A stretch of DNA of 64,000 nt from Candidatus Eiseniibacteriota bacterium (GTDB taxonomy: Bacteria; Eisenbacteria; RBG-16-71-46; JABDJR01): contig CAWANH010000029.1 of the NCBI GenBank assembly GCA_963783375.1, positions 868,981 to 932,980 on the forward strand, in the 5' to 3' direction. How positions within the stretch are numbered: position 1 is the stretch's first letter; the number at the start of each line of letters is the position of its first letter. The notes beneath the pieces were generated by a model. It made no database searches. It was not told the DNA's origin and worked only from the letters and a program-made list of their open reading frames with translations. Below are positions 1,539 to 37,756 of this stretch, one piece after another. The position numbers and the translations under genes are program-made.

Positions 1539-1636
1539 TTCGAGGCCCCGGCGCCGTGATCGTCACGGCCCCGCCGGGCGACGATTTCCATGGAGCCGCC
1601 GACCGGCGGCATGACGACCCACGAAGAGGAGAGACC

Positions 1637-2941: not shown

Positions 2942-3001
2942 GCGGGATTTCGTATCCCGGCCGGGCGGCTCTTGCCCGGTTCGCCGAAGTTGAGCGCACA
3001 T

Positions 3002-3033
3002 GGGAAGCCGGGGCCGCTGGGCCCCGGCTTCCC
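3002..3033. terminator. GC-rich 14-bp-stem hairpin between convergent ahcY (+) and the epimerase gene (-); likely a bidirectional terminator
   Basis: GGGAAGCCGGGGCC-GCTG-GGCCCCGGCTTCCC is a perfect inverted repeat 61 nt after the ahcY stop. The plus strand is followed by TCTGCC, so the T tract is weak. Confidence 0.45.
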
Positions 3034-3048
3034 TCTGCCGGCCGGAAT

Positions 3049-4041
3049 CTAGCCCCCCGACCGCGCGTCCCAGGCCGCGAGGAGCTTCGCCTCGCGATCC
3101 GCGGTGAGGCCGGACTTGAGGGTGGTGCCGGGCGGGCGGCTCATGTCCCAGGCCAGGGTCTCGCGCACGACCTGAACCGTGGAGCGGAAGGCGAGGCCGT
3201 CCCCGAGCGCCCGGTCGATGTTGACGGCCAGGATTCCCCCCTCCTCGGGCGGCGGCACCAGGGGAATCTCGCTCCAGAGCTCCGCCTTCTGATCGACCAG
3301 GAACTCCACCGGCACCCACTCCGGCTCGGCGTTGCTCCCGCTCACCTCGCGGCAGATCCGGAACAGGTCCCCCATGGCCACCGGCTCCCGGGGCCCGGTC
3401 ACGTTGAACACCCCGGTCCGCCGGCCTTCGGCCATGCGGAGGAGCCAGGCGGCCTGGTCGGAGGCGTGGATGACCTGGACCGGAGCGTCCTGCGGGGCGG
3501 GCGCGAGGTACCGTCCCCCCGTCGCGATCCGCCGCACCCAGTAGGTGAACCGGTCGGTGGGATCGTAGGGGCCGACGATCAGCCCGGAGCGGGCGATGAG
3601 CACCCGGCCCGGCATGGCGCGCTCGGCCGCGGTCTCGCAGAGGGCCTTCAGGGCGCCGTAGGTCTCGCCGGTGATCTCCTCGGTGGCCGGGTCGTCCAGG
3701 GTCGCGACCTCGGCGCTCTCGTCCATGTCGGGGGTGAACTTCCGGTACACCGAGATGCTGGAGACGAAGGTGTAGTGCTCCACCTTCTCGGCCAGGTACT
3801 CGGCCGAGGCGCGGACCAGCCGGGGCAGGTAGCCGCAGGTGTCGATCGCCGCGTCCCAGCGGCGGCCGTTCAATTTCTCCAGCCCGCCGTCCCGATCCCC
3901 GAGCACGTGCTCGGCGCCGGGGAAGAGATCCGCCCCGGTCTTCCCGCGATGGAAGAGGGTCAACTCGTGACCTTCGGCGAGGGCGATCTCCGCCAGGTGC
4001 CGTCCCAGGAAACGGGTCCCACCGATCACCAGGAGCTTCAT
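3049..4041 (-). CDS. NAD(P)-dependent epimerase/dehydratase family protein (atypical SDR)
   Basis: N-terminal MKLLVIGGTRFLGRHLAEIALAEGHELTLFHRGK is a Rossmann GxxGxxG motif; the protein is 330 aa; a GGAGGAG RBS lies upstream. Confidence 0.8.
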   Translation of the reverse strand: MKLLVIGGTRFLGRHLAEIALAEGHELTLFHRGKTGADLFPGAEHVLGDRDGGLEKLNGRRWDAAIDTCGYLPRLVRASAEYLAEKVEHYTFVSSISVYRKFTPDMDESAEVATLDDPATEEITGETYGALKALCETAAERAMPGRVLIARSGLIVGPYDPTDRFTYWVRRIATGGRYLAPAPQDAPVQVIHASDQAAWLLRMAEGRRTGVFNVTGPREPVAMGDLFRICREVSGSNAEPEWVPVEFLVDQKAELWSEIPLVPPPEEGGILAVNIDRALGDGLAFRSTVQVVRETLAWDMSRPPGTTLKSGLTADREAKLLAAWDARSGG

Positions 4042-4112
4042 GCGTGGTCTCCTCCGGCCGTCACCGGCGGCCGCTCATGGGTTCGAGCACGGGACACCGG
4101 AGCCCGCGCCGA

Positions 4113-6236
4113 TCATTGGTTCGCCGGCAATGCGCCCGCTTCCGCGCCGGCGGGCACCGGCCCCCGGTCGCAGTAGATGCCACCCCGGCGCTCGCCGAAG
4201 CCTCGGGGCGGAGCGTACCGCCCTTCCGCCAGCTTTCGCGCCAGGTCCGAGAGCCGGTCCCCCGACCCGAAGGTTCCCGAGAGGTCCACGAAGATCGCCA
4301 CCCCCGGGGCGCGGCGGCGCCAAAGGTTTCCGCCGCGGCTGTCCACGAACCCGATCGAACGGTTGAGTTCATTCTCTTCGTAGAGTCCGAAGCCGTTCTC
4401 CCCGGCCAGATCCACGAACCAACCCGCTCCCTGGCGGAGGCTCACGCCCAGGGACGACCCTCGGCCGGGGTTGTACGTGTCCGCCCCCTCGGCGTCCAGG
4501 AATATGCCCAGACCCAGATCGTCGCCGAATCCCAGGCCCCAGTTGGCCAGGTAATAGTCCGCCCCGGTAAGGTTCACGAGGATCCCCGCCCCCATCCTCT
4601 CCCCGCACCCCATCCCGCGCCCGGCGGCGATAGAGCTATCTCGCCCGGCGAGGTCCACCAGCGCCCCCAGGCCGAAGTCGCGCCCGAAACCCTGCACACC
4701 GTACCCGGCCTCGTAGGTGTCGTCGCCGGCCGCGTCCACCAGGAACCCCAGCCCCCCGGCGGGAAAGGGCCCGATCGCCGCCGCCGCCCCCTGGACCGCC
4801 ATTTCGGTTGTGTCGCCCCGGGTGCTCCAGGGGAACTCCTTCAACCTCCCAACCCAGTAGCGGTCTCTCCCCCCCAGGTCCAACAGCAACCCCAGCCCCC
4901 GCCATCCGCCGAACCCCTGGCCCATGCCGAATCCGTTGACCGGCTCGTCTCCGGTGATCTCGAAGCGGTCGTTCCCGGCCCGGTCCAGGAGGATCCCCAT
5001 GCCGTAGACCGCCGCCCCCTGGGAGAGCCACTGGCCGCGATACAAATCATCCCCCCCGTCGTCCTCGATCCAGCCCACCCCGCCGAAGCCGAATCCCGAG
5101 CCCCAGGCCGTGGCCTCGTAGACGTCGTCGCCGGCCCCGAGGTCCACCACCGCCGCGTACCCCAGGATCGCGCCTCCCGGGCCCGCCCGCCCCGAGTCCG
5201 CGGCGGCGTAGCGGTCGTTTCCGCCGAGGTCCACCACCACCGACGCCGGTTCGTCCCCCGAAGCGGACCCCGGACCCTCGTAGACATCGTCACCGCCGAG
5301 GTCCAGCACCAGGAGGTAGCTTCCGTGGTAGCGGTTGGCGCCCGCTCCCCCCACCGCGACCCGCCCGAGGGGCGAGGCCCAGTCGAACTGGAACTCGCTC
5401 TCCGCCGCGGGGAGCGCGGCCAGGGCGGCCGACGCGGTGTCCACCTCCCCCGCCAATCGCACCGCCCCGCGAGTGAGCGCGCGAAGATCCAGGCTCGAAA
5501 GCTCCCGCTCGAGTTCCCGGGTGTCATCCTCCGCGGTCTCATCCCCCTGGACCACCACCCCCCGGAGCGCCGCCGCGGTCCGTTTCCCCTTCGCCCCGAA
5601 GATCCCGCCCCGCTCCAGCTCCGAGCGGTCCACCTCGCGGTTCCGCCGCACCGCGGCCGCCCGGGAGGCCAGGATCAGCGCAGCCAGCTCCCGCGCGGTC
5701 GCCGGAGCCAGGGTCGCCTCCTCGCGGGTCACCGTCTCGCGGTCCTTTCCCTGGAACCGTTTCCCGGTCCCGGTGAAGAGCGCCTCCATGGCGGTGGTGA
5801 CCGGGGTGGATGACGACTGCACCGCCCGCTCCTCGGCCGCGAGCACGGTGTCGGGGAGCGGAGCCACCGAGACCTCGGGCTCCCCCAGGTCGGCGAGGAG
5901 CGCCATCACCCCACCCACCGACGACGCCCGCGCCAGCTCCCGGGCCGCCCCCTCCAGGGTGGCCGGGGCCCGGCCGGGCTCGTCCATCACGTACTTCTGG
6001 AAACGGAGCCGCCCCGCCGGCTCCCCCATCAGCGCCAGCGCGGCGGGGTCGACGCGGAACGCTTCGGGCGTCGTGCCGTCCAGCGCGGCCAGCGTGTCGA
6101 GCACCGCCCGAAGGCGCGGGGAGTCGCATACCAGCGTGTCGGCCGCGGTCCCCGGGGGGGAAGCCTCGGGGGCGCGGACGGCGGAGCCGAAGGCCAGCAC
6201 GAGCCCCAGGAAGACCGAAGCCGCTCCGCGACTCAA
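4113..6236 (-). CDS. secreted Gly/Asp-rich tandem-repeat protein with about 11 repeats of ~24 aa and core hhhD(L)xGxDxY; predicted beta-solenoid, function unknown
   Basis: A TTG start at 6236..6234 overlaps the plsC TGA (TTGA) and gives MSRGAASVFLGLVLAFGSAVRA|PEASP, a Sec signal peptide. An alpha-helical ~300-aa region follows. The repeats include LVLDLGGDDVYEG, VVDLGGNDRYAA, VVDLGAGDDVYEA, ILLDRAGNDRFEI, LLLDLGGRDRYWV, FLVDAAGDDTYEA, LVDLAGRDSS, LVNLTGADYY, FLDAEGADTYN and FVDLAGENGF. The upstream part of track ORF 4113..7016 lies out of frame over plsC. Confidence 0.6.
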   Translation of the reverse strand: MSRGAASVFLGLVLAFGSAVRAPEASPPGTAADTLVCDSPRLRAVLDTLAALDGTTPEAFRVDPAALALMGEPAGRLRFQKYVMDEPGRAPATLEGAARELARASSVGGVMALLADLGEPEVSVAPLPDTVLAAEERAVQSSSTPVTTAMEALFTGTGKRFQGKDRETVTREEATLAPATARELAALILASRAAAVRRNREVDRSELERGGIFGAKGKRTAAALRGVVVQGDETAEDDTRELERELSSLDLRALTRGAVRLAGEVDTASAALAALPAAESEFQFDWASPLGRVAVGGAGANRYHGSYLLVLDLGGDDVYEGPGSASGDEPASVVVDLGGNDRYAAADSGRAGPGGAILGYAAVVDLGAGDDVYEATAWGSGFGFGGVGWIEDDGGDDLYRGQWLSQGAAVYGMGILLDRAGNDRFEITGDEPVNGFGMGQGFGGWRGLGLLLDLGGRDRYWVGRLKEFPWSTRGDTTEMAVQGAAAAIGPFPAGGLGFLVDAAGDDTYEAGYGVQGFGRDFGLGALVDLAGRDSSIAAGRGMGCGERMGAGILVNLTGADYYLANWGLGFGDDLGLGIFLDAEGADTYNPGRGSSLGVSLRQGAGWFVDLAGENGFGLYEENELNRSIGFVDSRGGNLWRRRAPGVAIFVDLSGTFGSGDRLSDLARKLAEGRYAPPRGFGERRGGIYCDRGPVPAGAEAGALPANQ

Positions 6237-6979
6237 GACACCGGCTCCCGCGCCTGCGCTTCGGGAAGGCCGGAGAGGATCGCCTCGCGCACCCGGGCAG
6301 AGAGCGCGGGAATGTCCGCCCGGGTGAGCCCGGCGGTGGGAATGGGCGGGTGGATGATCACGGTGATCCGGCCCGTCCGCGGGAGAAGCTTCCGCTTCCC
6401 GAGGATCCGCCCGGTGTTCCGGATGGAGATCGGGAGGATGGGATAGCCGGTATCCACCGCCACGTAGAAGCCGCCCTTCTTGAACGGCAGGAGTCGCTGA
6501 TCGGGCGAGCGGGTTCCCTCGGGGAAGACGGCCAGGGCGATCCCCTTCCGCATGCGGCTCACCGCCTGGCGAAGCGCGGTCACCGCCTGCTCGCGGTTTC
6601 CCCGGTCCACCTTGATGTGGTGGGAGGCCCCCAGGGCCCAGCCCAGGAACGGCGCGCGCACCAGCTCCCGCTTGGCCACGAAACGGACGGAGAGGCCCTT
6701 CAGGGCCACCACCGTGGCCGGGATGTCCAGGTAGCTTCGATGGTCGGCCATCATCACGCAGGCCTGGCCGAGGGGGAGGTGCTCCCGGCCCTCGGTCCGA
6801 ACCGGGGCCAGGAAGCAGGCGAGCATGGTCCGGCTGTAGAGTTGCTGGGAGAACTCCATCCAAACCGCGTGGGGATCGAAGGGGGCGCCCACGAGATACA
6901 GGAGCCCGATGAGCATGCTCCAGATCGCCGCCCAGAAATAGGCCCACACCGCGAAGATCACCCGAGCCGCCACGTTCAT
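6233..6979 (-). CDS. plsC: 1-acyl-sn-glycerol-3-phosphate acyltransferase
   Basis: An N-terminal TM helix is present. The HxxxxD acyltransferase box (MADHRSYLDIPA) and FPEGTRS motif are typical of PlsC. The protein is 248 aa. Confidence 0.88.
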   Translation of the reverse strand: MNVAARVIFAVWAYFWAAIWSMLIGLLYLVGAPFDPHAVWMEFSQQLYSRTMLACFLAPVRTEGREHLPLGQACVMMADHRSYLDIPATVVALKGLSVRFVAKRELVRAPFLGWALGASHHIKVDRGNREQAVTALRQAVSRMRKGIALAVFPEGTRSPDQRLLPFKKGGFYVAVDTGYPILPISIRNTGRILGKRKLLPRTGRITVIIHPPIPTAGLTRADIPALSARVREAILSGLPEAQAREPVS

Positions 6980-7024
6980 GGTCGAAGACTTTCGGGGGAA
7001 CCGCCGGAGCGGTCAAGGGAGGAA

Positions 7025-7064
7025 CGGATCAAGCGAGGGGGCGGAGATGGAAATCTCCGCCCCC
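7025..7064 (-). terminator. hairpin downstream of mdh (12-bp perfect stem GGGGGCGGAGAT-GGAA-ATCTCCGCCCCC)
   Basis: A perfect palindrome lies at 7037..7064. On the minus strand it is followed by CUCGCUUGAUCC, which is moderately U-rich. Position is consistent with an intrinsic terminator for mdh. Confidence 0.4.
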
Positions 7065-7146
7065 AGCGCGAGGGACCGGCGGAGAGAGGCCGGGCCTCCC
7101 CCCGCGTCGGAACCCGGACTTCCGCGGATCGCAGGCGCCCGCGGGC

Positions 7147-8073
7147 TCAGTACCCCAGCTCGCGGATGCTCGAGAGCACCTCGGCCGCCGACTTCCGGAG
7201 GGCGTCACCCTCGGCGTCGGTGAGCGGGAGCTCCAGGATCCTCTCCACCCCGCCCGCGCCCAGGATCACCGGCACGCCGACGTAGGTGCCCTCCACCCCG
7301 TACTGCCCGGTGCAATAGGCGGCGGCGGGCAGTAGGCGCTTGTTGTCGAGCAGGATGGCCTCGACCATCTGGGCCGCGCTGGCCCCGGGGGCGTAGAAGG
7401 CGCTTCCCGTCTTGAGCAACGCCACGATCTCGCCCCCCCCCTTCCGGGTGCGCTCGACCAGGCGGTCGATGGTGGCCTGGTCCATGAGGTCCATGATGGT
7501 GACCCCGCTCACCGTGGAGTAGCGCGGGAGCGGTACCATGGAGTCGCCGTGCCCGCCCATCACCATGGCCTGCACGTCGACCGGAGCCACGTTCAGCTCG
7601 GCGGCGATGAAGGCGCGGAAGCGCGCGGAATCCAGCACCCCGGCCATCCCCATCACCCGGTTGGGCGGGAAGCCGGTGGTCTTCATCATGTGGTAGGTCA
7701 TGATGTCGAGCGGGTTGGAGACCACCACCACGAAGGCGTCGGGGGCGTTCTTCTTGATCTCGGCCCCGATGCTCCCCACGATCTCCGCGTTCTTGGTGAG
7801 GAGGTCGGTCCGGCTCATGCCGGGTTTCCGGGGGAAGCCCGCGGTCACCAGGACCACATCCGAACCCTTCAGGTCCTTGAAGTCGTTGCTGCCGGAGACC
7901 TTGGAGTTGTAGCCCCGCACCGGGCCGGCCTCGAGCAGATCGAGCCCCTTCCCCTGGGGCACGCCGTCGACGATATCCACCAGAAGGACGTCGCAGAGCC
8001 CGCGATCGGCCAGGTACAGCCCCGCCGAGGCCCCCACGTTTCCGCCACCGCCGATCACGCTCACCTTCTTCAT
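7147..8073 (-). CDS. mdh: malate dehydrogenase (LDH-like MDH family)
   Basis: Translation MKKVSVIGGGGNVGASAGLYLADRGL...VVLVTAGFPRKPGMSRTDLL...MGGHGDSMVPL gives 308 aa. A GGGAGGGGAGGAA RBS lies upstream. Confidence 0.93.
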   Translation of the reverse strand: MKKVSVIGGGGNVGASAGLYLADRGLCDVLLVDIVDGVPQGKGLDLLEAGPVRGYNSKVSGSNDFKDLKGSDVVLVTAGFPRKPGMSRTDLLTKNAEIVGSIGAEIKKNAPDAFVVVVSNPLDIMTYHMMKTTGFPPNRVMGMAGVLDSARFRAFIAAELNVAPVDVQAMVMGGHGDSMVPLPRYSTVSGVTIMDLMDQATIDRLVERTRKGGGEIVALLKTGSAFYAPGASAAQMVEAILLDNKRLLPAAAYCTGQYGVEGTYVGVPVILGAGGVERILELPLTDAEGDALRKSAAEVLSSIRELGY

Positions 8074-8175
8074 GATTCCTCCCCTCCCTTTCGAGGCTGG
8101 ATGGTTGTCGTTCCCGCCGTTGAACCGGCGGGGACGTTCAAACTGTGCTCACCGATCTGACCCGTGTCTTCCGCC

Positions 8176-8225
8176 CCCAAACGAAAAGACCATGGCCCGC
8201 GGCGTCGGCCGGGCGGGGCATGGTC
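8176..8225 (-). terminator. intrinsic terminator candidate after the rplU-rpmA operon
   Basis: An imperfect long GC hairpin (GACCATGCCCCGCCCGGCCG...CGGGCCATGGTC, 8188..8225) is followed on the minus strand by CUUUUCGUUUGG. Confidence 0.45.
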
Positions 8226-8281
8226 TCATTCGACGTTTCGGACGGCGTGCGGCGACTCCCGCCGGGGAGGTCGCCGGTGGC

Positions 8282-8539
8282 TTACTCGGAGGCCTCTATC
8301 GAGACTTCCTTCCGATCCTTGCCCTTGCGCGCAAATGTCACCCGCCCGTCCACCAGGGCGAACAGCGTGTCGTCCTTGCCCCGCCCCACATTGACCCCGG
8401 GAAGGATCCGGGTGCCGCGCTGGCGCACGATGATGCTGCCCGCGGTGACCCGCTCTCCGCCGAAGGCCTTCACGCCGAGCCGTTGACTGTTGGAATCCCG
8501 GCCGTTCCGGCTCGATCCTACACCTTTTTTGTGTGCCAT
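8282..8539 (-). CDS. rpmA: 50S ribosomal protein L27
   Basis: [62 protein letters not shown] is the canonical L27 sequence. Confidence 0.93.
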
Positions 8540-8579
8540 GAGTCAGCTCCTGAACGCTTCAAAGGGTTCTGTCGGGCGG

Positions 8580-8891
8580 TCAGCCCTCGATGCCGTCGAT
8601 ACGAATCTCGGTGTAGTCCTGGCGATGCCCCCACCGGCGGCGATACTTCCGGCGGCGCTTGAACTTGCCCGCCACGAGCTTGGGGGTGCGGGCATGCTCC
8701 ACGACCTGGGCGGAGACCGAGGCCCCCTCCACCGTCGGGGTACCCACCTTGACCGAGGTCCCGTCCTGGACCAGGAGGACCTCGTCGAGGGTCAGGGTGG
8801 CCCCTTCCTCGGCCTCGAGGAGGGGAACCCGGAGCACCTGGTCCTTTTCCACCCGGTACTGGAAACCGGCGACCTTGATGACTGCGAACAT
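8580..8891 (-). CDS. rplU: 50S ribosomal protein L21
   Basis: The true ATG is at 8891 (internal to track ORF 8580..9095). MFAVIKVAGFQYRVEKDQVLRVPLLEAEEGATLTLDEVLLVQDGTSVKVGTPTVEG... gives 103 aa. Confidence 0.9.
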   Translation of the reverse strand: MFAVIKVAGFQYRVEKDQVLRVPLLEAEEGATLTLDEVLLVQDGTSVKVGTPTVEGASVSAQVVEHARTPKLVAGKFKRRRKYRRRWGHRQDYTEIRIDGIEG

Positions 8892-9108
8892 GAAACAAGC
8901 CTCCTCAAACCCGGGTCGACCCGGGCCGATGGGCGAGACGCCCTGGGGTAAGGACAAAGCGGGGGGGATGATACCAGCCCCCCCGGGCCGGGTCAACGAT
9001 TTGGTCCGGACCGGTTCCGGCCGGGCTCCGGATCCCCGGTCCCGGTCGTAACCGACCGCCCGGCACCAGGGTCCGGCCCCCCGCCGGAACCCCACCCACG
9101 CCTCCGGC

Positions 9109-10695
9109 TCAGGGCCGGAAGCGCTCGGTCACGTCCTCGTTGGTCCGGGGGAAGATGACCTTGACCTCCCCCCGCTTCAGCCGGGGGTCGTCCCGGACGT
9201 CGATCTGGAACTTGAACTTCTGCTCCAGCCGGGCCAGCCGGTCCGCGCTTTCCGCGAACAGGTGCTGGGCCATCTCCGGCGATACCCGAAGCTCGATCAT
9301 CTTCTCCTGGGTGTTGACCCCGATCCGGTTCAGCAGGCGCTCGACCTTGAGCGCCACCGACTCCAGGCTCAGGACCTTGCCCAGCCCGGCGCAGCAGATG
9401 CAGTCGTTGGAGTAGTAGTGGAGAAGGCTCGGGCGTTCCCGCTGACGGGTCATCTCCACCAGCCCCAGATCCGACACCGCGAAGGTCTTGGTGCGGCTCC
9501 GGTCCCGCTTGAGGTTCTTCCGGAGCTCCTCCAGGACCGCCTTCTTGTTGGCCTCGGACTCCATGTCGATGAAGTCGAGGACGATGATCCCGCCGATGTC
9601 CCGGAGACGGAGCTGGCGGCCGATCTCCCGCGCCGCCTCGATGTTGGTCTTGAGGATGGTCTCTTCCTGGTTCTTCTTCCCCACGAACCGGCCGGTGTTG
9701 ACGTCGATGGCCACCAGGGCCTCGGCCTGATCGATCACGATGTAGCCGCCCCGCTTGAGCCACACCTTCCGCTCGAAGAGCTTGTCGATCTCGGATTCGA
9801 TGCGGAAGGCGTCGAAGATCGGGAGCTTCCCCCGGTACTGACGGACCCGGCTCACCAGGTCCGGAGAGACCGACTGGAGGTAGTCCCGCACCTCCTGGTA
9901 GACATCCGGCGAGTCCACCGCCACGTCGTCCACGTCCTCGGTGAGGATGTCGCGAATGAGCCCGGTGGCCAGGGAGAGTTCGCGGTGAATGAGGGCGGGA
10001 GACGGCGCCGCCGCGCACCGCCGCTCGATCTTCTTCCACTGCTTGACCAGGTACCCCACGTCCTCCCGGAACTCCTCCCGGGAGCGCCCCTCCCCCGCCG
10101 TCCGCACGATGAGGCCCGCGTTCTTGGGGCGGATGTCCTTCAGGATCTTCTTCAGGCGGTACCGCTCGTCCCGGCTGGGGATCTTGCGGGAAACCCCGAT
10201 GTGGTCGGCGCCGGGCATGAACACCACGTAGCGGCCGGGGAGGCTCACCTGCTGGCTCACCCGGGGGCCCTTGGTGGAGATGGGCTCCTTGGTGACCTGG
10301 ACCACGACCTCCTGGGATTTCTGGAGATGGTCCTCGATCTTGGGGGCGCTTTCGCGCCGGGGCTTTCGACGGGGGGATCGTCCCCCGCGGCCGCCGCGGG
10401 CCGGCGCTCCTCCTCCGCTCTCCGGCTCGTCGTCGTCGTCGAGGAGATCCACGTCGCCCCCCACCAGGGAGGCGGCGAGGTCGGAGGCGTGGAGAAACGC
10501 GGTCTTGGCCAGGCCGATCTCCACGAAGGCGGCCTGCATGCCGGGAAGGACGGCGTTCACCTTCCCCTTGTAGATGTCCCCCACGATGCGGCGGTCATCG
10601 GGCCGCTCCACCAGGAGCTCCACGAGCTGCTTGTCTTCCAGGATCGCCACCCGGGTTTCCTTCGGGTCGGCGTTGATAATGATCGACTTCTGCAT
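9109..10695 (-). CDS. rng: ribonuclease E/G family protein (Rne/Rng/CafA-like)
   Basis: The start at 10695 gives MQKSIIINADPKETRVAILEDKQLVELLVERPDDRRIVGDIYKGKVNAVLPGMQAAFVEIGLAKTAFLH (S1 domain). The catalytic DNase-I-like and RNase-H-like regions follow. The protein is 529 aa with an acidic/Arg-rich insertion. Confidence 0.85.
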   Translation of the reverse strand: MQKSIIINADPKETRVAILEDKQLVELLVERPDDRRIVGDIYKGKVNAVLPGMQAAFVEIGLAKTAFLHASDLAASLVGGDVDLLDDDDEPESGGGAPARGGRGGRSPRRKPRRESAPKIEDHLQKSQEVVVQVTKEPISTKGPRVSQQVSLPGRYVVFMPGADHIGVSRKIPSRDERYRLKKILKDIRPKNAGLIVRTAGEGRSREEFREDVGYLVKQWKKIERRCAAAPSPALIHRELSLATGLIRDILTEDVDDVAVDSPDVYQEVRDYLQSVSPDLVSRVRQYRGKLPIFDAFRIESEIDKLFERKVWLKRGGYIVIDQAEALVAIDVNTGRFVGKKNQEETILKTNIEAAREIGRQLRLRDIGGIIVLDFIDMESEANKKAVLEELRKNLKRDRSRTKTFAVSDLGLVEMTRQRERPSLLHYYSNDCICCAGLGKVLSLESVALKVERLLNRIGVNTQEKMIELRVSPEMAQHLFAESADRLARLEQKFKFQIDVRDDPRLKRGEVKVIFPRTNEDVTERFRP

Positions 10696-14460: not shown

Positions 14461-16080
14461 TCATTCCTTCCGGAGGAACACCACCACGTGGAAGTTCCGT
14501 TCCCTCCCCGCCACAAGCTCCATCAGCCGCTCGTAGTGCGGGTCGTTCCGGAGCAGGGTGTCGGGCACGTCTCCCCAGAGCCGCGGCCCGTAGTGGTTCT
14601 CCCACAGCACCACGCTCCCCGGCCGGGCCCCGGCCAGATTCGCCCGGGTGAGCTTCGGGGTCCGGGTGGCATCGTAGCGGTCGCGACCGGAGAAGAAGGC
14701 GAACCAGGGATGGTTGGTGTAGACCACGGCGTTCCCCAGGCCGAGCCGGTCGATCTGCTCGGTGGCCGCCTTCACCGCCGCGCGCTCGGGATCGAGGCCG
14801 ATGGGGCGGACGGTGAGAAGCGCCAGCGCCGCCGCTCCCACCCCCGCGGCTATTGCCACCCGGCGCGGGGGAACGAGCCGCGGCCGGAACAGCACGAGCA
14901 CCCCGCCCGCGGCGAGGAGCGCGGTCACCACCCAGCGCCATTCCACCCGTCCCGGCCCGATGAAGGACTCCCCCACCAGGACGTGCGAGCCGAAGAGCGC
15001 CACCACCGCGGTCCAGGCCAGCGCGAAACCGATTCGTAGTCCCAGGGGGCGCGGCCGAAGCCCGGACCAGTCCCCGGCCCCACGGGCGGCCACCAGCGCC
15101 ACCGCCGGGGCTACCACCGCGATGTGACGGAGAAACCCGACGCTCCGCCCGAAGGGAAGCTTGTCCCAGGCCAGGAGGCTCAGGAGAACCACGTCCACCA
15201 CCACCAGGACCACGGCCAGGACCGGAAGGCGCGCCGGAGCCTCGGACGAGGCGGGCGCCCGGTTCCCGGAGCGAAGCGCCGCCGCCAGGGCCCACAGGAA
15301 GAAGAAGAGGACCACCGCCCCGATCACCACCACCCCGTTCCGAACGTACTGGAGCGGCCCCAGGCTCACCAGCGGACGCTCGTTCCCCGCCCCCAGCACA
15401 TAGAGCGGCGACCCGTGGAGCGCCCAGCCCGCCACCGCCCAGACGGCGCCCGGGAAGAAGGCCCCCAGCCGCGCCTTCCATCCCACCCGGGGCCACGCCG
15501 CGGCCAGGACCACCAGGGTGAGCACGCCGGCCTCGATCCGGGCCAGGGGAAGGAGCCCGGCCAGAAGCACCGCCCGGTCGCGCCGCCCCGCGTACCACGC
15601 CCAGAGAAGGGCCGCCATCACCAGCGCGGCCATCGGCTCCGCCAATCCCCCGTAGGAGGTTTCGAGGACCAGCGGCTGGAAGAAGAAGAACGGCACCGCG
15701 AGCCAGGGGAAGGCCACCCCCGCCGCCTCGGCGGCCAGGCCGGCCAGGGCCGCCGCCCCCGCCACCGCCACCGCGGTGGTCGCCTCCACCCCCGCATAGC
15801 CGAAGAGGCGGGCGGGAAGCGCGAACAGCGCCAGGGGGACCGGCATCCCCCAGTCGTCGGCGAGGAGCGAGGGGTCCTTCCAGACCTGGCGGGCCATGTA
15901 GTAGCGATCGATGTCGTCGTCCTGGTAGGTGCCGGGGGAACGGGCGGCGTAGACCAGGGCCACGGCCAGGCAGAGAAGGGCGAGGGCGAGGATCGCGCGC
16001 CGGGACCGCCCGGAGCCGGCCTTCCGGCGCGTTCCGCTCCCGGACCGCGGCGCGCGCCGCCCGAGGCCCCGGTTCCCCAT
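14461..16080 (-). CDS. polytopic membrane protein, putative GT-C superfamily glycosyltransferase (ArnT/PMT-like)
   Basis: The protein is 539 aa with more than 10 predicted TM helices. Its N-terminal region (DDIDRYYMARQVWKDPSLLADDWGMPVPL) resembles GT39/GT83 family starts. The stop overlaps the rodA start. Confidence 0.65.
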   Translation of the reverse strand: MGNRGLGRRAPRSGSGTRRKAGSGRSRRAILALALLCLAVALVYAARSPGTYQDDDIDRYYMARQVWKDPSLLADDWGMPVPLALFALPARLFGYAGVEATTAVAVAGAAALAGLAAEAAGVAFPWLAVPFFFFQPLVLETSYGGLAEPMAALVMAALLWAWYAGRRDRAVLLAGLLPLARIEAGVLTLVVLAAAWPRVGWKARLGAFFPGAVWAVAGWALHGSPLYVLGAGNERPLVSLGPLQYVRNGVVVIGAVVLFFFLWALAAALRSGNRAPASSEAPARLPVLAVVLVVVDVVLLSLLAWDKLPFGRSVGFLRHIAVVAPAVALVAARGAGDWSGLRPRPLGLRIGFALAWTAVVALFGSHVLVGESFIGPGRVEWRWVVTALLAAGGVLVLFRPRLVPPRRVAIAAGVGAAALALLTVRPIGLDPERAAVKAATEQIDRLGLGNAVVYTNHPWFAFFSGRDRYDATRTPKLTRANLAGARPGSVVLWENHYGPRLWGDVPDTLLRNDPHYERLMELVAGRERNFHVVVFLRKE

Positions 16081-24149: not shown

Positions 24150-25423
24150 TCAGTTCCGGCCCGATCCCACCATCCGGTATCGGCCGAACCCGTCCGGGTC
24201 CTGGAAGACGTAGGTGGCGCTCCGTGAGTAGTAATACCAGATTTCAGTCGGCGGCCCCGATATTCCGTTGACCGTGCGCTCGATCCGATCGGGGGCCCCG
24301 AACCTGATGTAGGTCCGGCCCATGTCGGAGCGCCACCCCGGCTCCAGGACCCCGAAGTGCTGTTCGGCGTACTCCACCCGGTTCATGAACTTCACCAGGG
24401 CCTCGTTCGCGGCAGTCCGGGGGGCGGGATCGCGCCGGTTCCAGAACCGGGTCCAGAGCACGGCCAGCGAGTCATCGGGGGCGTCCTCCAACTCGCGAAG
24501 CTCGGCGTTGGTGGCCACGTAGCCGAGGACGGTGCGGAGCATTCGGGGGTCCTCGAGAGCGATCCGGGTCTCGTCCACCTGGAACGTGCCCTCGGAGCGG
24601 GCGCGCTCCCCCCCAGGCTCGCCTCGACCTCGAGCCGGTAGCTTCCCCGGTCGAGTCCGGCCAGGGACGGCTCCACCAGGATGAACCCGCGTCCGTTCCG
24701 CCGCGGGGCGGAACCGGTCGAGTCGGCGCGCGTCCGCCCCATCCCGTCCCGGACCGACCAGCGGACGGCGTAGGCGCTGTCGGCCACGCCGGGAATCCCG
24801 TCCCGGACCCAGGCCCCTACACAGAGGCCGGCGGTGTCGTCCCCATAGCGGGCGAACGGTCGCGGGAGAACCGGCCCCACCGAGCCCGCCCGGCGGCCGC
24901 CGCCGGTGTCGCCGGCGCACTCGCCGAAGATCAGATCGGAGACGGCAAGCGGCGTCCCCCGGTAGTCCGGAACGCGGATGGGGAGATCGGCTTCCCCCCG
25001 GCGGTCGCTTCCCGGTTGATCCACCTCGACATGAAGATCGGCCCGCCCCGGCGGAAGCCTCAACTCCAGATGATCCAGGTAGGCGCCGCCCCCACCGGCC
25101 GCCCGCACCGCGGCGTCGCGAGCGTAGCTCCTCGTCCACTTCCGGGTGATCGTGCTTCCCCCCTCAGCGGCGGTGGCGATGACCAGGACGTGGAGAGTGG
25201 ACGAATCGGCCTCCACGGAACCGGAGGTCGACGCCAGCCCGGCGAGGGGAAAGGCAAGCTCGAGGCGGGTCACCGGGCTCCCCGCGGAGTCGGGATAGGA
25301 AATCGTCCGGGTGAGGAAAGGGAGATTTCCCCGGACCTTGGCTTCGGCGGCGGGAGCGGTCGAAGCCCAACCCAGGATCCCGAGCAGGATCATCGAGGCT
25401 CCGGCCGCCGGGATCCGACTCAT
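24150..25423 (-). pseudogene. GWxTD domain-containing secreted protein, disrupted by a 1-nt frameshift at a C7/G7 homopolymer (24608..24614); probably an assembly error rather than a true pseudogene
   Basis: The N-terminal part (frame of track ORF 24392..26380, starting ATG 25423) is MSRIPAAGASMILLGILGWASTAPAAEA..., with a signal peptide and an ATGA overlap with the moaA stop. The C-terminal part (frame of track ORF 24150..25139) is ...EGTFQVDETRIALEDPRMLRTVLGYVATNAELRELEDAPDDSLAVLWTRFWNRRDP...EPGWRSDMGRTYIRFGAPD (GWxTD motif). The two frames join exactly at the run CTGGGGGGGAGC. Adding one G restores a single ORF of about 425 aa. Confidence 0.75.
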
Positions 25424-27320: not shown

Positions 27321-27335
27321 TGGTACAATCGAGCC
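27321..27335 (+). promoter_or_regulatory. extended -10 promoter (TGGTACAAT) ending 6 nt before the ATG; leaderless transcript predicted
   Basis: TGG-TACAAT at 27321..27329 with the ATG at 27336 and no RBS between them. The same TGnTA(C/T)AAT architecture recurs at 534..542, 51980..51988 (-) and 61256..61264 (-). Confidence 0.35.
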
Positions 27336-28706
27336 ATGAGGCCCCAACCCCTCCTCATCGTGGCCGCCCTCCTACTCGCCCCGGCACCGGGGACGGCGGC
27401 GGTGGTCCGGGTGGAGTCCGACGGGAGCGGCGATTTCACCGCCATCCAGGCCGCCGTCGACGCCGCGGTCTCCGGAGACACCGTGATGGTGGGGCCGGGC
27501 ACCTGGTCCGAACACGTCGCGGTCGAGGGGAAGTGGTTCATCCTGATCGGGCGGGAAGGGGCCGAGTCCACGGTGCTGGAGGGGGGCTACGCGGGCCGTC
27601 CGTTGACCATCGTCGATTCCGGCCTCCGCTGCACGATCACCGGGTTCACCTTCACCCACGGCATCAAGAACGGTCTCTTCCCGGACAATTCCGGAGGCGC
27701 CCTGGCCGCCTTCCACGCCAACCTCACCGTGAAGGAATGCGTGTTTCGGGAGAACGTGACCTCGGCGGGGGGGACGGGGGGCGCGATCTACGCCACCGCC
27801 CGCGTGGTGCCCGGGGTCTCCCACACCGGTCCCCAACCCGCTCTCTCCCCCGAGATCCAGATCGCCGATTGCCTCTTCGAGGACAACTGGGCCAGCGACG
27901 AGGGGGCGGGAACCTTCATCGACGACTCGGAGGCGGTGATCACCGGCTCCACCTTCCGCCGGGGGCAGGCCGTCCAGGGCGGGGCGATCTCCCAGGTCGG
28001 CCGCCCCCTCACCGTCATCGACTGCCGCTTCGAGGGGAACCATTCCCGGAAGGACGGGGGGGCGTTGATCCACACCGCGACCCTCATCACTCCGGTGACC
28101 CTCGAGGGATGCGTGTTCCTCGACAACCGCTCGACCGACATGGGGGAGGGAGGCGCGGTGAAGGTGAAGGGGCGGGAGAACCTGGTCATCCAGGATTGCG
28201 CCTTCCTGCGGGGATCGGCCTGGCAGGGAGCTGGAGCCCACCTCCAGACCGCCTCGCTCCTCATTCGCCGCACCCTATGGCTCGACAACCATGCCGACGA
28301 CCGGGGCGGAGCGCTCTACCTGCTCTCCCCCGCCGGCGCGGTGATGGAGCGAACCACCTGGTTCGCCAACGGCGCCGCCGTCGCGGCCTCGATCTACGCC
28401 AACGGGGGTTCGTTCGAAGTGCGAGCCTCCATCATCGCCGACCCGGGCCCGAACACGGTCCTCTGCCACGTGTCGGAGGGGACCGGGTCGTGCCTGGTGG
28501 GAGGACCGGCCACCGGGGGCTGCCTCCCCTTCGAGCAGATCCAGGCGGTGGCGGTCTGCCCCTCGGACTCCCTGAGCCTCTGCTCGGCGCCGGCGCTCCC
28601 CGGTTGCGGGCCGGTGGGCCACGTGGATGCGCCGTGCCCCGACGGCGCCTGCGACACCCCGGTCCGGGCGGTGAGCTGGGGCGTCCTGAAGCGGCGCTAT
28701 CGCTAA
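27336..28706 (+). CDS. secreted right-handed parallel beta-helix (pectin-lyase-fold) repeat protein with a Cys-rich C-terminal tail
   Basis: Start at 27336 gives MRPQPLLIVAALLLAPAPGTAAVVRVESDGSGDFTAIQAAVDAAVSGDTVMVGPGTWSEHV. The signal peptide and GDFxTIQxAVDAAxxGDT...GTY motif are characteristic of DUF1565/pectin-lyase-like beta-helix proteins. Repeated beta-helix coils follow. The C-terminal tail carries 8 Cys (SCLVGGPATGGCLPF...CPSDSLSLCSAPALPGCGPVGHVDAPCPDGAC). Confidence 0.75.
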   Translation: MRPQPLLIVAALLLAPAPGTAAVVRVESDGSGDFTAIQAAVDAAVSGDTVMVGPGTWSEHVAVEGKWFILIGREGAESTVLEGGYAGRPLTIVDSGLRCTITGFTFTHGIKNGLFPDNSGGALAAFHANLTVKECVFRENVTSAGGTGGAIYATARVVPGVSHTGPQPALSPEIQIADCLFEDNWASDEGAGTFIDDSEAVITGSTFRRGQAVQGGAISQVGRPLTVIDCRFEGNHSRKDGGALIHTATLITPVTLEGCVFLDNRSTDMGEGGAVKVKGRENLVIQDCAFLRGSAWQGAGAHLQTASLLIRRTLWLDNHADDRGGALYLLSPAGAVMERTTWFANGAAVAASIYANGGSFEVRASIIADPGPNTVLCHVSEGTGSCLVGGPATGGCLPFEQIQAVAVCPSDSLSLCSAPALPGCGPVGHVDAPCPDGACDTPVRAVSWGVLKRRYR

Positions 28707-30010
28707 CCCGAGGGGATCATGCGGTCGTCGGCCGGCGGGGAGGCCTCGGGGGCGCCGGGGCCGGGGAAGGGCTCGGCGGCGACGGCGATCCACAGGAGCG
28801 GCTCCACCGGGAAGAAATAGCGGGCCCCGCCGAGGAACGGCAGGTGGCCCAGGGTCCAGGCCCCGATCCCCGCCGCGCCCACGCGGGCCGCAGCGGTTTG
28901 TTCGGGATCGAGCCGCCGGCGCTTCCACCGGCGCCACCCCGCCCGAAGGGCCAGGAGCCAGGCCGCGACCTGCGCCGCCTGGGCGAGCGCCAGAACCATG
29001 AGCGCGGGGAGCCTCCCCCACTTGCTCGCGAGCTCGGACCGGTAGGTGGCGGCGGGGGCGGGAAGCAGGAGGCGCGCGGCCTTGACCGGCATCAGCGCCA
29101 CGAAGCGGGCCGGATGGTCTCCGATGTAGTCGAGGGCCCGGTGGAGCGCCAACCGCTGGTTCTCGATTTCATTTCCGGTCGCCGGAATTCCATCGGGGGG
29201 ATCGGCGCGGCCGCCGCGGGCGTTGGGGTTGTTCCCCAGGAGAAGATTCAGGGATCCGTTGGTGGCGATGAGGACCGGGCTCCCCAGAACACGCTGGTTT
29301 CGCGCTCCCCAGAGACTCACCCCGGCGAGATCGAAAACCAGGAGGACGGCGAGAACCGCGGCCAGTCGGCGGCCGCCGAACCGCCGCCACCCCCAGAGCG
29401 CGGCCACCGCCGCGGGAACCACCAGGAACGCGTGCCCGCGGGTCATTCCCGCCGCGACCCCGGCCGCGCCCGCCCCCATGAGCCAGAGAGCGCCTCCCCG
29501 GCGAGCGAAGCGGACCACGGCGGCCAGAGCCAGGAGGAGCGCGGCCCCGCACACCACCTCGGACATGAGAAACGCCGGCATCACGATCTGGCTGGGGTCC
29601 AGGGCCAGGAACAGCGCCGCGCGCTTCGCGGCCCGGCGACCGGCCAGCTCCGCGGCCAGCCAGGCTCCGGCGGCGGCCAGCGCCAGCGAGGCGATCACGT
29701 TCATCGCCTGGCCGGCGCGGGGGGAGGCCCCGGCGATCCGATAGGCGACGGAGAGCGCCAGGGGGTATCCGGGCGGATAGAGAGCGGTCGGCGCGCCCTG
29801 ATAGCTGAAACCGTTCCCGGCGGCCAGGGCGGCGGCGGTTTCATGGTAGAAGTGGCTGTCCCAGGTATTGGCCACGGTGGGAAAGACCGGGGTGGCCAGA
29901 ACCGCGGCGAGCCGGAGCGCGACCCCCAGTCCAACCGCCCAGAACCACCCGCGCGGGACATCGCGCGGCGACCGGGCGGCGAGGGGTTTCGGCGACATGG
30001 GCCCGATCAT
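28703..30010 (-). CDS. polytopic membrane protein, GT-C superfamily glycosyltransferase (ArnT/GT39/GT83-like)
   Basis: Start is at 30010 (MIGPM...) or 29998 (MSPKPL...). The protein has multiple TM helices. The segment WDSHFYHETAAALAAGNGFSYQGAPTALYPPGYPL resembles the ArnT/PMT loop. It is the second GT-C gene in the window. Confidence 0.7.
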   Translation of the reverse strand: MIGPMSPKPLAARSPRDVPRGWFWAVGLGVALRLAAVLATPVFPTVANTWDSHFYHETAAALAAGNGFSYQGAPTALYPPGYPLALSVAYRIAGASPRAGQAMNVIASLALAAAGAWLAAELAGRRAAKRAALFLALDPSQIVMPAFLMSEVVCGAALLLALAAVVRFARRGGALWLMGAGAAGVAAGMTRGHAFLVVPAAVAALWGWRRFGGRRLAAVLAVLLVFDLAGVSLWGARNQRVLGSPVLIATNGSLNLLLGNNPNARGGRADPPDGIPATGNEIENQRLALHRALDYIGDHPARFVALMPVKAARLLLPAPAATYRSELASKWGRLPALMVLALAQAAQVAAWLLALRAGWRRWKRRRLDPEQTAAARVGAAGIGAWTLGHLPFLGGARYFFPVEPLLWIAVAAEPFPGPGAPEASPPADDRMIPSG

Positions 30011-30163
30011 ACCCAAAGCCGGATTCCATGGCAGGATTGAAAACCGCGGCCGGGCAGGCGTGGGAAAGCGCCGCACCCCGCCTGTCTCATGTCCGCGTTG
30101 CGGAACATGTCCCCCGTCCACCTCATGGCCGTCCTGCGCCCGCTCCGACGCCTCCTCCCCCGC

Positions 30164-35690: not shown

Positions 35691-37658
35691 TCAGGGGAGC
35701 CGGACGACCTTGAACGCCGCCTGCGCCCCGCCCCCGACCGCGCGGACGAAGTAGAGTCCGGCCGGGGCCGGAGACCCGTCCCCGTCGCGTCCGTCCCACC
35801 GCAGATCCACCGTCTCACCTTCCGCCTCTCCGTCGTAGAGCCGTCGCACCTCCCGTCCCCGCGCGTCCCATACCGTGACCCGGGCCGGACCGGCGGGCAG
35901 GGTCACCCGGAAGCTCAGCGCCTCGCGGAAGGGGTTCCGCTCGGGAAGCCCCAGGGTCAGGCGCGGAATGGAACCGGCGACCGACGCGCGGGCCAGCACC
36001 GTCGTCCTGCCCCCACGGTCCAGGCCCACCAGCCGGTACTCCGCCCGTCCCGCCGATGGTCCGGCGTCCAGGATCTTCCCACTCGCCGGAGGGAGCCATC
36101 CCTCGTTGACCGCGGCCGTCAGCCCATCGCGCTCCCGCTCCACGCGCACCCCGGACAGCTCGTCGCTCTCCGCCAGTTCCCAGCCGATCTCCACCCCGCC
36201 CGCCGCCTCGGTGGCGGTGAAGCTCACCACCCGGACCGGAACGTAGGTCGCGGCATCGACAATGAAGTCGACGTAGCCCGACGCCACCCCCAGGGCGGCG
36301 TTCCCTTCGGGGGCCCCGGCCAATAGCTCCGCCCGGGCGTCGAGGTCCGAGGCGCGGCCGTTGAAGGACCCGGCGAAGCGCACCGAAGCCCCGAAGCGAT
36401 CGAACGCCTCGAAGCTCGGCACCGGCGGCGCCGGCCCGAGCCGGAGATCGGCGGAGATGTTGGGACTCGACCCACCGTAGTAGATCCGCACCTGGCCGGC
36501 GCGGGAACCGGGGTCGTCCACCCCCGGGGCTCCGGCCGCGAAGTCGGGAACACCGTCCCCGTTCATGTCGAAGCCGCCGTCCACCGCCACCCCCAGGCTG
36601 TCCCCCCCCGTGGTCCCGTTGGCCCACCAGGTGGAGAGGCTGTTCACGGTGAAGCCGCCGCGGAACAGGTAGATCGTCCCGGAGCCGAGGCCGGCGCTGT
36701 CCCGTCCCGGCGCCCCCACCAGGACGTCGTCGTAGCCGTCGCCGTTCTGGTCGCCGGCCCCGCTCACGTCCGCGCCGAAGCGGTCGGCTCCGGTTTGACC
36801 GGTGAGGGTCACCCGGGTCGGGGCGACAACGGTCGAGGCCTGGCCGAGCCAGATCACCGCGTGGCCGGGGTTCAGGTCCTCGAGCTGCGGCGCGCCGGCG
36901 ATGAGGTCGTCGTAGCCGTCCTTGTTGACGTCGCCCGCGGGGTCCAGGGAGTATCCGAGGTCCCATTTGGCCTGATCCCCGTAGAAGGTAAAGCTGGAAA
37001 CCAGGCCGGAGACGTTCCCCTTCCCGAGGAAGACCTTCACCTGGCCGGCCCGGAGCCCCGCGCCGTCCGGCCGGGTGTCGGTGATGGTGGGCGCGCCCAC
37101 CGCGAAGTCGGCGTACCCGTCCTTGTTGAAGTTGAAGCCGCCGGCCAGCGAAGCCCCGAAGCGCGCCCCGGGCAGGTCGCCGGTCCAGGACTTGTCCGGT
37201 CCCGAGGGAAGGGAACTCGCCCCGAAGAAGAGATACACCTTCCCCGCCCCGACCCCGGCCTGATCGTTCCCCGGCGCTCCCACCAGAAAATCGTCGTAGC
37301 CGTCGCCGTCGACGTCTCCCGCGGTGGACACCGCGAACCCGAACTCGTCGCCGCTCACCGCGCCGTAGTAGACCGCGTCCGGCGTTTCCGGGAAGACACC
37401 GTAGCGACCGAGGAAGAGCTGGACCAAGCCGGCGTGGCCGGCGGGACCGTTGGCGTCGGGCGCTCCCACCAGAAAATCGTCGTAGCCGTCGTGGTTCACG
37501 TCCCCCGCCCAGGCCACCGCCCGGCCGTAGCGGTCCCCGTCCTGGTCCCCGCTCAGGACCTGGGCCCCGGCCGGAACCCAGCTCCCAAGAAGCAGCCCCA
37601 GGACCCCCAGGACGGCCCAGCGGACGCACGACCTCGCGGAGCTATTCATCTGGAACAT
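35691..37658 (-). CDS. FG-GAP repeat (integrin-alpha-like beta-propeller) protein with a C-terminal Por/T9SS-type sorting domain (CTD, FlgD-Ig-like)
   Basis: MFQMNSSARSCVRWAVLGVLGLLLGSWVPAGAQV is a signal peptide. Seven or more repeats of GDVNxDGYDDFLVGAP follow. The terminal ~80 aa (NPFREALSFRVTLPAGPARVTVWDARGREVRRLYDGEAEGETVDLRWDGRDGDGSPAPAGLYFVRAVGGGAQAAFKVVRLP) match the TIGR04183-type CTD pattern. A GGAGAGGA RBS lies upstream. Confidence 0.8.
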   Translation of the reverse strand: MFQMNSSARSCVRWAVLGVLGLLLGSWVPAGAQVLSGDQDGDRYGRAVAWAGDVNHDGYDDFLVGAPDANGPAGHAGLVQLFLGRYGVFPETPDAVYYGAVSGDEFGFAVSTAGDVDGDGYDDFLVGAPGNDQAGVGAGKVYLFFGASSLPSGPDKSWTGDLPGARFGASLAGGFNFNKDGYADFAVGAPTITDTRPDGAGLRAGQVKVFLGKGNVSGLVSSFTFYGDQAKWDLGYSLDPAGDVNKDGYDDLIAGAPQLEDLNPGHAVIWLGQASTVVAPTRVTLTGQTGADRFGADVSGAGDQNGDGYDDVLVGAPGRDSAGLGSGTIYLFRGGFTVNSLSTWWANGTTGGDSLGVAVDGGFDMNGDGVPDFAAGAPGVDDPGSRAGQVRIYYGGSSPNISADLRLGPAPPVPSFEAFDRFGASVRFAGSFNGRASDLDARAELLAGAPEGNAALGVASGYVDFIVDAATYVPVRVVSFTATEAAGGVEIGWELAESDELSGVRVERERDGLTAAVNEGWLPPASGKILDAGPSAGRAEYRLVGLDRGGRTTVLARASVAGSIPRLTLGLPERNPFREALSFRVTLPAGPARVTVWDARGREVRRLYDGEAEGETVDLRWDGRDGDGSPAPAGLYFVRAVGGGAQAAFKVVRLP

Positions 37659-37756
37659 GAGATCCTCTCCATAATCCTTTACGGGTGTGTTGACTATGCC
37701 GAATGTGAATCCGGGAGTCCCACACGCCCTCTCCTCGGGTGGACGCCACCCGTTGG

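Follow-up and report, generated by a model that had tools for sequence, protein, structure and literature searches.

The closest described counterparts of the element studied here are the C-terminal sorting domains (CTDs) of type IX secretion systems (T9SS). Those of type A, e.g., in RgpB, PorU and PorZ of Porphyromonas gingivalis and in mirolase of Tannerella forsythia, span about 80 residues at the extreme C-terminus of Sec-exported proteins and fold as a seven-strand, 3+4 immunoglobulin (Ig)-like beta-sandwich. PorU and PorZ themselves both end in CTDs. P. gingivalis CTDs have two functionally required elements: the hairpin that joins strands 3 and 4, which in RgpB reads F-D-M-N-G-R-R with an essential Gly, and a conserved Lys of the terminal strand (PMC11285876). 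The literature places the T9SS in Bacteroidota and states that it "may" occur in some other phyla of the Fibrobacterota-Chlorobiota-Bacteroidota (FCB) group, without listing Eisenbacteria, and TXSScan found it only in Bacteroidetes. Here, we analysed 64,000 nucleotides of a Candidatus Eiseniibacteriota genome (contig CAWANH010000029.1, positions 868,981 to 932,980; hereafter the window, whose coordinates we use throughout) and, within it, a gene on the reverse strand (35691-37658) whose product carries a beta-propeller followed by a tail resembling these domains. We conclude, with a probability of about 0.7, that the product of this gene is an exported cargo, secreted and sorted along a type-IX-like pathway by an uncultured Eisenbacterium of soil.

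The gene is real and complete, with 655 codons followed by a TGA stop (35691-35693). The open reading frame (ORF) listing calls it, its third-position GC content (GC3) is 0.89, like that of other real genes in the window, and an identical public protein has been called on contig_30162 of ENA ERZ25039549 (970 kb) and on one NCBI contig (1.70 Mb). Orthologues at 44-80% identity have the same length and architecture. A first-pass annotation, made from the sequence alone, had proposed this 655-residue product, and all the strings it quoted are present in it: GDVNHDGYDDFLVGAP, NPF, VTVWDARGREVRRLYDG, LRWDGRDGDG, GLYFVRAV and, at the very end, KVVRLP-COOH.

The tail occupies residues 575-655 (35694-35936, reverse strand) and forms a beta-sandwich resembling that of T9SS type A, in an FlgD-Ig-like subtype. 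It starts with an NPF strand, continues with a W-D-A-R-G-R hairpin (motif Lb3b4), a WDGRDGDG loop after strand 5 and a GLYFVR strand, and ends at the stop codon with F-K-V-V-R-L-P-COOH. The hairpin (W-D-A-R-G-R-E) has three residues that are invariant in 15 orthologue tails (D37, G40 and R41) and that correspond to those of F-D-M-N-G-R-R in RgpB, and the last strand, right at the C-terminus, holds a Lys or Arg that is conserved across tails. In the AlphaFold model, residues 470-655 have a pLDDT (predicted local distance difference test) of 90.7, and the closest structural match of the predicted tail is PorU. The extra loop sits after strand 5, where PorU and PorZ likewise carry an insertion. 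When we aligned the 15 orthologue tails with five tails annotated as PF18962 using hhalign, we obtained a probability of 97% and an E-value of 9e-11 over 73 columns at 30% identity; the alignment extends from the NPF strand as far as the Lys in the last strand, and its sole indel is a five-residue insertion in the WDGRD loop. At E ≤ 0.01, the same orthologue tails match TIGR04183 in 12 cases out of 15, the PorU model in 10 and the PorZ model in 7, and the match of TIGR04183 to the tail of our protein alone spans positions 4-70 of the 72 in the model. The tail is thus homologous to T9SS type-A CTDs, of a subtype that the Pfam and NCBIfam models score as FlgD_ig.

The similarities with type-A CTDs extend beyond sequence scores. 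The tail has about the same length and the same place at the extreme C-terminus of a protein predicted to be exported by Sec, its modelled fold is an Ig-like sandwich in which the first strand is of NPF type, strands 3 and 4 are joined by a D-x-x-G-R hairpin and the last strand holds a basic residue, and it is modular on hydrolases and adhesins and present on a PorU-like sortase too. Unlike those domains, it scores below both curated cut-offs, carries a five-residue WDGRD-type insertion after strand 5, often has Arg as its terminal basic residue, ends in ...R-L-P instead of K-x-x-x-K, and comes from a phylum for which we found no described T9SS in the literature searched. Because of the WDGRD-type insertion, the tail resembles FlgD_ig. 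Indeed, the FlgD Ig-like domain (PF13860) is the best-scoring family for the core of the tail, with which it shares D-x-x-G-R-x-V-R and W-D-G-x-D-x-x-G...G-x-Y. The subtype may be intermediate between the FlgD_ig and Por_Secre_tail models, with the insertion after strand 5 placed as in PorU and PorZ. We rejected the possibility that the protein is the flagellar hook-capping protein FlgD: only the Ig-like part (PF13860) matches, the FlgD equivalog models score 13-26 bits on the 655-residue protein against cut-offs of 230-383, the FlgD N-terminal domain is absent from the models matched by the protein, and the neighbouring genes in the window are housekeeping genes with no flagellar context.

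An exhaustive HMMER search with a profile of the tail matched about 215,000 representative proteins; the best 150 of these were mostly multi-repeat giants and said little on C-terminal modularity. Among the analysed proteins, C-terminal copies cover the entire profile (median positions 6-93, with 96 of 100 reaching at least position 90), whereas internal copies match the core alone (median positions 28-82, with 33 of 963 reaching that far). The first strand and the last are thus a specific feature of terminal copies. We then scanned species-representative genomes with the five closest tails and obtained 80 loci (numbered with the prefix L). The tail ends the ORF in 79 of them, and the 75 usable tail-bearing ORFs fall into 35 passenger clusters that have no detectable similarity beyond the tail. 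The passengers include subtilases (S8), M1 and M6 metallopeptidases, an alpha-amylase, and beta-helix, cohesin, Big, sortilin-like and choice-of-anchor domains, i.e., a repertoire of the same kind as that described for T9SS cargo (PMC11205867). TIGR04183 matches 13 of 33 passenger representatives at E ≤ 1e-5, and the tail of L013, from the same metagenome-assembled genome (MAG) as the orthologue L003, passes the cut-off of this model (35.7 bits against 23).

Most of these loci (58 of 80) bear the label Candidatus Eisenbacteria or Eiseniibacteriota, and several share a MAG. The patterns used in the scan (PAGLYFVR) favour close relatives, so that the enrichment in this lineage is partly built in; the proposal in the first-pass annotation that the protein is a lineage marker could be weighed only against a search biased in this way. 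The same tail subtype occurs in one locus labelled Phaeodactylibacter (Bacteroidota, 56% GC). Six others (L019, L020, L027, L031, L038 and L053; 64-74% GC), which public MAGs assign to Phycisphaerales, Udaeobacter, Limnocylindria, Acidiferrales and Saccharimonadaceae, have Eisenbacteria-type tails, and their contigs have probably been put in the wrong bins. In L005, two neighbouring ORFs (2306-7531 and 7565-10270, both on the forward strand) end in CTD-like tails, the first being 1,742 residues long from stop to stop. The multi-repeat giants (P0123-P0271) reach 7,779 residues with up to 30 internal tandem repeats of the FlgD-Ig-like core, and many of them end in an OmpA-like ...NRRVEFILIK, making up a large and apparently little-characterised class.

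Among the tail-bearing ORFs, one encodes a PorU-like C25 protein and lies in an unrelated MAG of 32% GC (L079); no porV adjoins it, and a protein database search seeded with it returned eight matches, none from Eisenbacteria. T9SS neighbours are also lacking around P0278, a C25 protein of marine origin that has an FlgD_ig tail. A local profile built from the PorU-like protein of L079 and its few homologues found a PorU-like ORF in L068, a contig of 72% GC on which the subtilase cargo beside this ORF shares 92.6% identity with its counterpart in an Eisenbacteria-labelled MAG. The ORF lies downstream of dnaE, is clipped by the end of the locus and covers the first 462 of 1,095 positions of the PorU model (E 3.9e-34). 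When metagenomes were scanned with it, relatives were found on contigs of about 70% GC, three of them with uninterrupted ORFs. These high-GC PorU-like proteins have about 1,300-1,450 residues. Their profile matches P. gingivalis PorU (6za2) with an E-value of 6e-59 over residues 407-1150 of 1,156, gingipains match it through their pro-domains only, and the domain at the C-terminus of these proteins matches the profile of our tail (E 1e-8 to 7e-11).

The order of genes on these contigs is dnaE, an accA-like gene, the PorU-like gene, a gene for a 317-residue protein with a signal peptide and a ...GYRF end, and an M6/FG-GAP cargo with a canonical CTD. This conserved cluster was observed on Eisenbacteria-type contigs of about 70% GC, at 5604-14733 of L085, at 10572-17826 of L068, and in L086, L088 and L089. 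In 36 of 80 loci, homologues of the 317-residue protein are encoded by the strand that also carries the PorU-like gene, and a profile of four high-GC members matches Flavobacterium johnsoniae PorV (6h3i_F) with an E-value of 6e-24 and nothing else significantly. Since adjacent genes match 6za2 and 6h3i_F, we take the lineage to encode PorU-like and PorV-like proteins as a pair. From these sequence matches it follows that Eisenbacteria probably encode both, the assignment of the contigs to the phylum being indirect. The search for porU, porV and sprA homologues that the first-pass annotation had recommended was therefore partly fruitful: the first two have counterparts in related Eisenbacteria-type contigs, none lies in the window, and SprA was not seen. 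The pair beside dnaE could act as a marker for the system in Eisenbacteria.

We considered whether the third gene of the porU-porV cluster might be PorZ and rejected this, because its HExxH metalloprotease, FG-GAP-like repeats and CTD make it a cargo. In four loci (L085, L088, L089 and L090), the N-terminal residues of the PorU-like ORFs, about 225 in number, match the pro-domains of gingipains (Kgp 5mun, E 7e-11; RgpB 4ief, E 5e-9), which hints that these sortases are made as zymogens. On L068, a gene resembling the ATPase associated with the XrtA/PEP-CTERM system lies at 1200-3458 on the reverse strand (E 2e-75, under the curated cut-off); an additional sorting system of the exosortase type may exist in the lineage.

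If the protein follows the T9SS route, it would be exported by Sec and then fold in the periplasm, where its CTD would be recognised through the D-x-x-G-R hairpin and the basic terminal strand. A PorV-like shuttle could then pass it to a translocon in the outer membrane, and a PorU-like sortase would cut off the CTD within the linker that precedes it (residues ~563-574). The propeller and stalk would thereafter be attached to the surface or released, and the propeller, loaded with Ca2+, might bind a ligand, in adhesion or in substrate capture. A broader claim, on which we are evenly divided, is that Eisenbacteria possess a working type-IX-like secretion and attachment system with its own CTD subtype, partly encoded by the dnaE-accA-porU-porV-cargo cluster and serving many hydrolases and adhesins, the subtype linking T9SS sorting domains evolutionarily to the FlgD Ig-like family.

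A number of observations weigh against the T9SS-type reading, and many of them speak for an alternative that we judge unlikely, namely that the tail is a purely structural FlgD-type Ig-like spacer or binding module without a role in sorting, in a protein that is periplasmic or exported otherwise. FlgD_ig is the sole C-terminal model over its cut-off (35.7 bits against 27 on the last ~81 residues). TIGR04183 gives 16.3 bits in the full protein and 21.5 on the tail alone, below its cut-off of 23, and PF18962 is not reported for the 655-residue protein at E ≤ 1; the check with these two models that the first-pass annotation had put forward thus came out negative. Among PDB sequences, the tail matches FlgD (E 2e-5) and reaches the CTD of PorZ with an E-value of just 1.3, i.e., it is closer to the Ig-like domain of FlgD. 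The same core fold is used very often as a repeat inside proteins, away from the terminus, as in the giants with up to 30 tandem copies and among the roughly 215,000 representatives matched by the profile, and no T9SS gene, core components included, was found among the genes of the 64-kb window. Against this alternative, the NPF strand and the basic last strand are essentially restricted to terminal copies (the 96 of 100 against 33 of 963 given above), the tail is strictly C-terminal on 35 unrelated passengers and homologous to PF18962 tails, and the lineage has a PorU-like sortase with the same tail and a PorV-like neighbour. The protein also lacks the N-terminal domain of FlgD and any flagellar context. 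Homology, motifs, structure, terminal position and modularity together are the reasons why we read the tail as a T9SS-type sorting domain despite its sub-threshold scores. The first-pass annotation had named as contrary evidence a C-terminus scoring better as a generic Ig fold in a genome devoid of T9SS components; one half of this was found, the better score as FlgD_ig, while PorU-like and PorV-like genes exist in related contigs. Its description of the C-terminus as a T9SS/FlgD-Ig pattern survives in the FlgD_ig score and in the alignment with PF18962 tails at 97% probability, but not in TIGR04183, which stays below its cut-off.

The remaining difficulties concern the machinery. The PorU-like and PorV-like genes were found in related contigs alone, which are tied to Eisenbacteria indirectly, through GC content and through 60% identity and shared synteny with L068, and the PorU-like scores are under the NCBIfam cut-offs. 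Neither SprA/Sov nor PorK, PorL, PorM or PorN was seen, nor any candidate of the size of SprA, in about 2 Mb of loci that are fragments of genomes and so uninformative on this point. A literature search returned no publication pairing Eisenbacteria with the T9SS or with "type IX secretion". The tail might instead be a sorting signal of a different, undescribed outer-membrane system for export or attachment in Eisenbacteria, one that has recruited PorU-like and PorV-like parts without canonical SprA and PorKLMN. That these two proteins are the only components found, with scores below the equivalog cut-offs, would fit such a system, as would the distinct subtype of the tail with its insertion after strand 5, the observation that CTDs are not interchangeable between species (PMC11285876) and the restriction of the T9SS to Bacteroidetes in TXSScan. 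We nevertheless hold it to be quite unlikely, given that the failure to see SprA and PorKLMN covers about 2 Mb of fragments, with no whole genome among them, and that PorU and PorV act with the T9SS translocon in all studied systems. Sorting through PEP-CTERM and exosortase, or a similar C-terminal anchor system, is barely credible. The XrtA-associated ATPase-like gene of L068 (1200-3458; E 2e-75, below cut-off) and the choice-of-anchor domains of some passengers, which accompany various sorting signals, would be in its favour, but the tail is a folded beta-sandwich of about 81 residues with no PEP motif, no hydrophobic transmembrane (TM) helix and no cluster of Arg after such a helix at its end, and the NCBIfam output contains no PEP-CTERM model. 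Sequence and model effectively refute it.

The rest of the protein fits the T9SS-type reading of an exported cargo. Residues 1-32 (MFQMNSSARSCVRWAVLGVLGLLLGSWVPAGA|Q; 37563-37658, reverse strand) read as a Sec-type signal peptide, judged from sequence features and the model: a positively charged n-region containing Arg, a hydrophobic core and an AGA|Q site, without a lipobox Cys, and a lone low-confidence helix at residues 9-24 in the AlphaFold model. The hydrophobic N-terminus is kept in orthologues, and the signal peptide of the first-pass annotation can be retained as a prediction. A Shine-Dalgarno-like GGAGAGG, read directly from the upstream sequence and putative in function, precedes the ATG by 5 nt (37664-37670, reverse strand). 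Residues 33-468 (36255-37562, reverse strand) form a seven-bladed, integrin-alpha-like FG-GAP beta-propeller, as indicated by PF01839 (E 1.7e-39, far beyond chance), by the repeats, by the AlphaFold model and by Foldseek. The first-pass annotation had seen seven or more repeats; their integrin-like FG-GAP character stands, and the count is exactly seven units within these residues. The modelled propeller has 28 strands, i.e., seven blades of four, mostly with a pLDDT of 85-97 (the mean over the whole model is 84.4), and integrin-type Ca2+-loop motifs (D-x-N/D-x-D-G-x-x-D) occur in blades 1-6, blade 7 being degenerate.

The stalk that follows is an Ig/FnIII-like beta-sandwich (residues 474-562; 35973-36239, reverse strand), assigned from the model and from matches to FnIII-like folds; no Pfam family matched it. 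The domain also directly precedes the tail on other passengers, with a match in L013 (E 4e-14), whose passenger is clearly different, and weaker ones in L046, L061 and L074. Between stalk and tail, a flexible linker (residues 563-574, GSIPRLTLGLPE; 35937-35972, reverse strand) is marked by low pLDDT, which drops below 50 at residues 563-565, and by a sequence that is poorly conserved across orthologues; it is the candidate site at which a PorU-type sortase would remove the tail.

With Foldseek, the closest structures to the whole model are the ectodomains of integrin alpha5, alphaV and alphaIIb (E ~1e-25), and the alignment extends into their Ig-like "legs". Our protein shares with these ectodomains, and with bacterial FG-GAP proteins, the seven blades, the Ca2+-loop motifs and the Ig-like leg domains that come after; unlike integrin alpha, it has no TM anchor, no beta-subunit partner and no inserted I-domain, and sequence identity is 13-18%. 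FG-GAP proteins of Calditrichaceae and metagenomes (e.g., P0056, P0057 and P0061) also join an FG-GAP propeller passenger to a T9SS-type tail. They have about 1,000-1,150 residues, apparently two propeller units and canonical PF18962 tails, whereas the family studied here is compact (about 640 residues), with a single propeller and the FlgD-Ig-like subtype of tail. The gene is an ordinary member of a large FG-GAP cargo family, in which FG-GAP surface proteins number in the thousands and some homologues are already annotated as T9SS type A: UniRef gives a homologue at 49% identity (P0025) the name "T9SS type A sorting domain-containing protein". The first-pass annotation had spoken of surface adhesins and a cell-surface cargo; an FG-GAP cargo that is secreted or surface-bound and bears a T9SS-type tail is supported, and "adhesin" is suggested by the integrin-like fold.

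The named close homologues of the protein come from Candidatus Eisenbacteria. The first-pass annotation had placed the organism in the FCB group, partly on account of a GWxTD protein, which is indeed present (329 residues, 24150-25139, reverse strand; TIGR04514 at 94.6 bits against a cut-off of 28), its motif reading GWRSD. Phylogenomic work agrees with this placement, a 2026 paper treating Eisenbacteria and Joyebacterota, the latter assigned there to the FCB superphylum, as descendants of a recent common ancestor, whereas the NCBI taxonomy keeps Eiseniibacteriota under "Bacteria candidate phyla", outside the FCB group. The core of that earlier reading, in which an FCB-affiliated organism puts out an FG-GAP cargo, secreted or on its surface, that bears a T9SS-type CTD, is right on the basis of homology, motifs, predicted structure, modularity and the porU-like and porV-like genes of the lineage.

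The phylum-level evidence for T9SS-type sorting is a more interesting by-product than the gene alone. Eisenbacteria are a common phylum of soil and sediment, are absent from the lists of T9SS-bearing lineages, and probably use a type-IX-like surface sorting. The standard T9SS-CTD models miss or barely detect their tail subtype and label it "FlgD Ig-like"; their secretome is therefore probably under-annotated. If the porU-porV pair and the tail family make up a working system, T9SS-type sorting ranges more widely than known so far, and the subtype would be a naturally divergent CTD with which to study recognition by the translocon and the sortase.

The window as a whole has a GC content of about 70%, and its genes are housekeeping ones (aminotransferase, MgtC, PutA-like, DUF255, Mla, MetH, MreB/PBP2/RodA, RNase G, LexA and others). 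A 456-residue Chlam_PMP/right-handed beta-helix protein (27335-28705, forward strand), which has no CTD tail, is probably another surface or secreted protein, and a PMT_2-type glycosyltransferase gene (about 28703-30121, reverse strand) adjoins it. Directly 3' of the mreB-mreCD-PBP2-rodA cluster lies a 539-residue ORF (14461-16080, reverse strand) that has a gene-like codon bias (GC3 0.91) and matches no Pfam or NCBIfam model.

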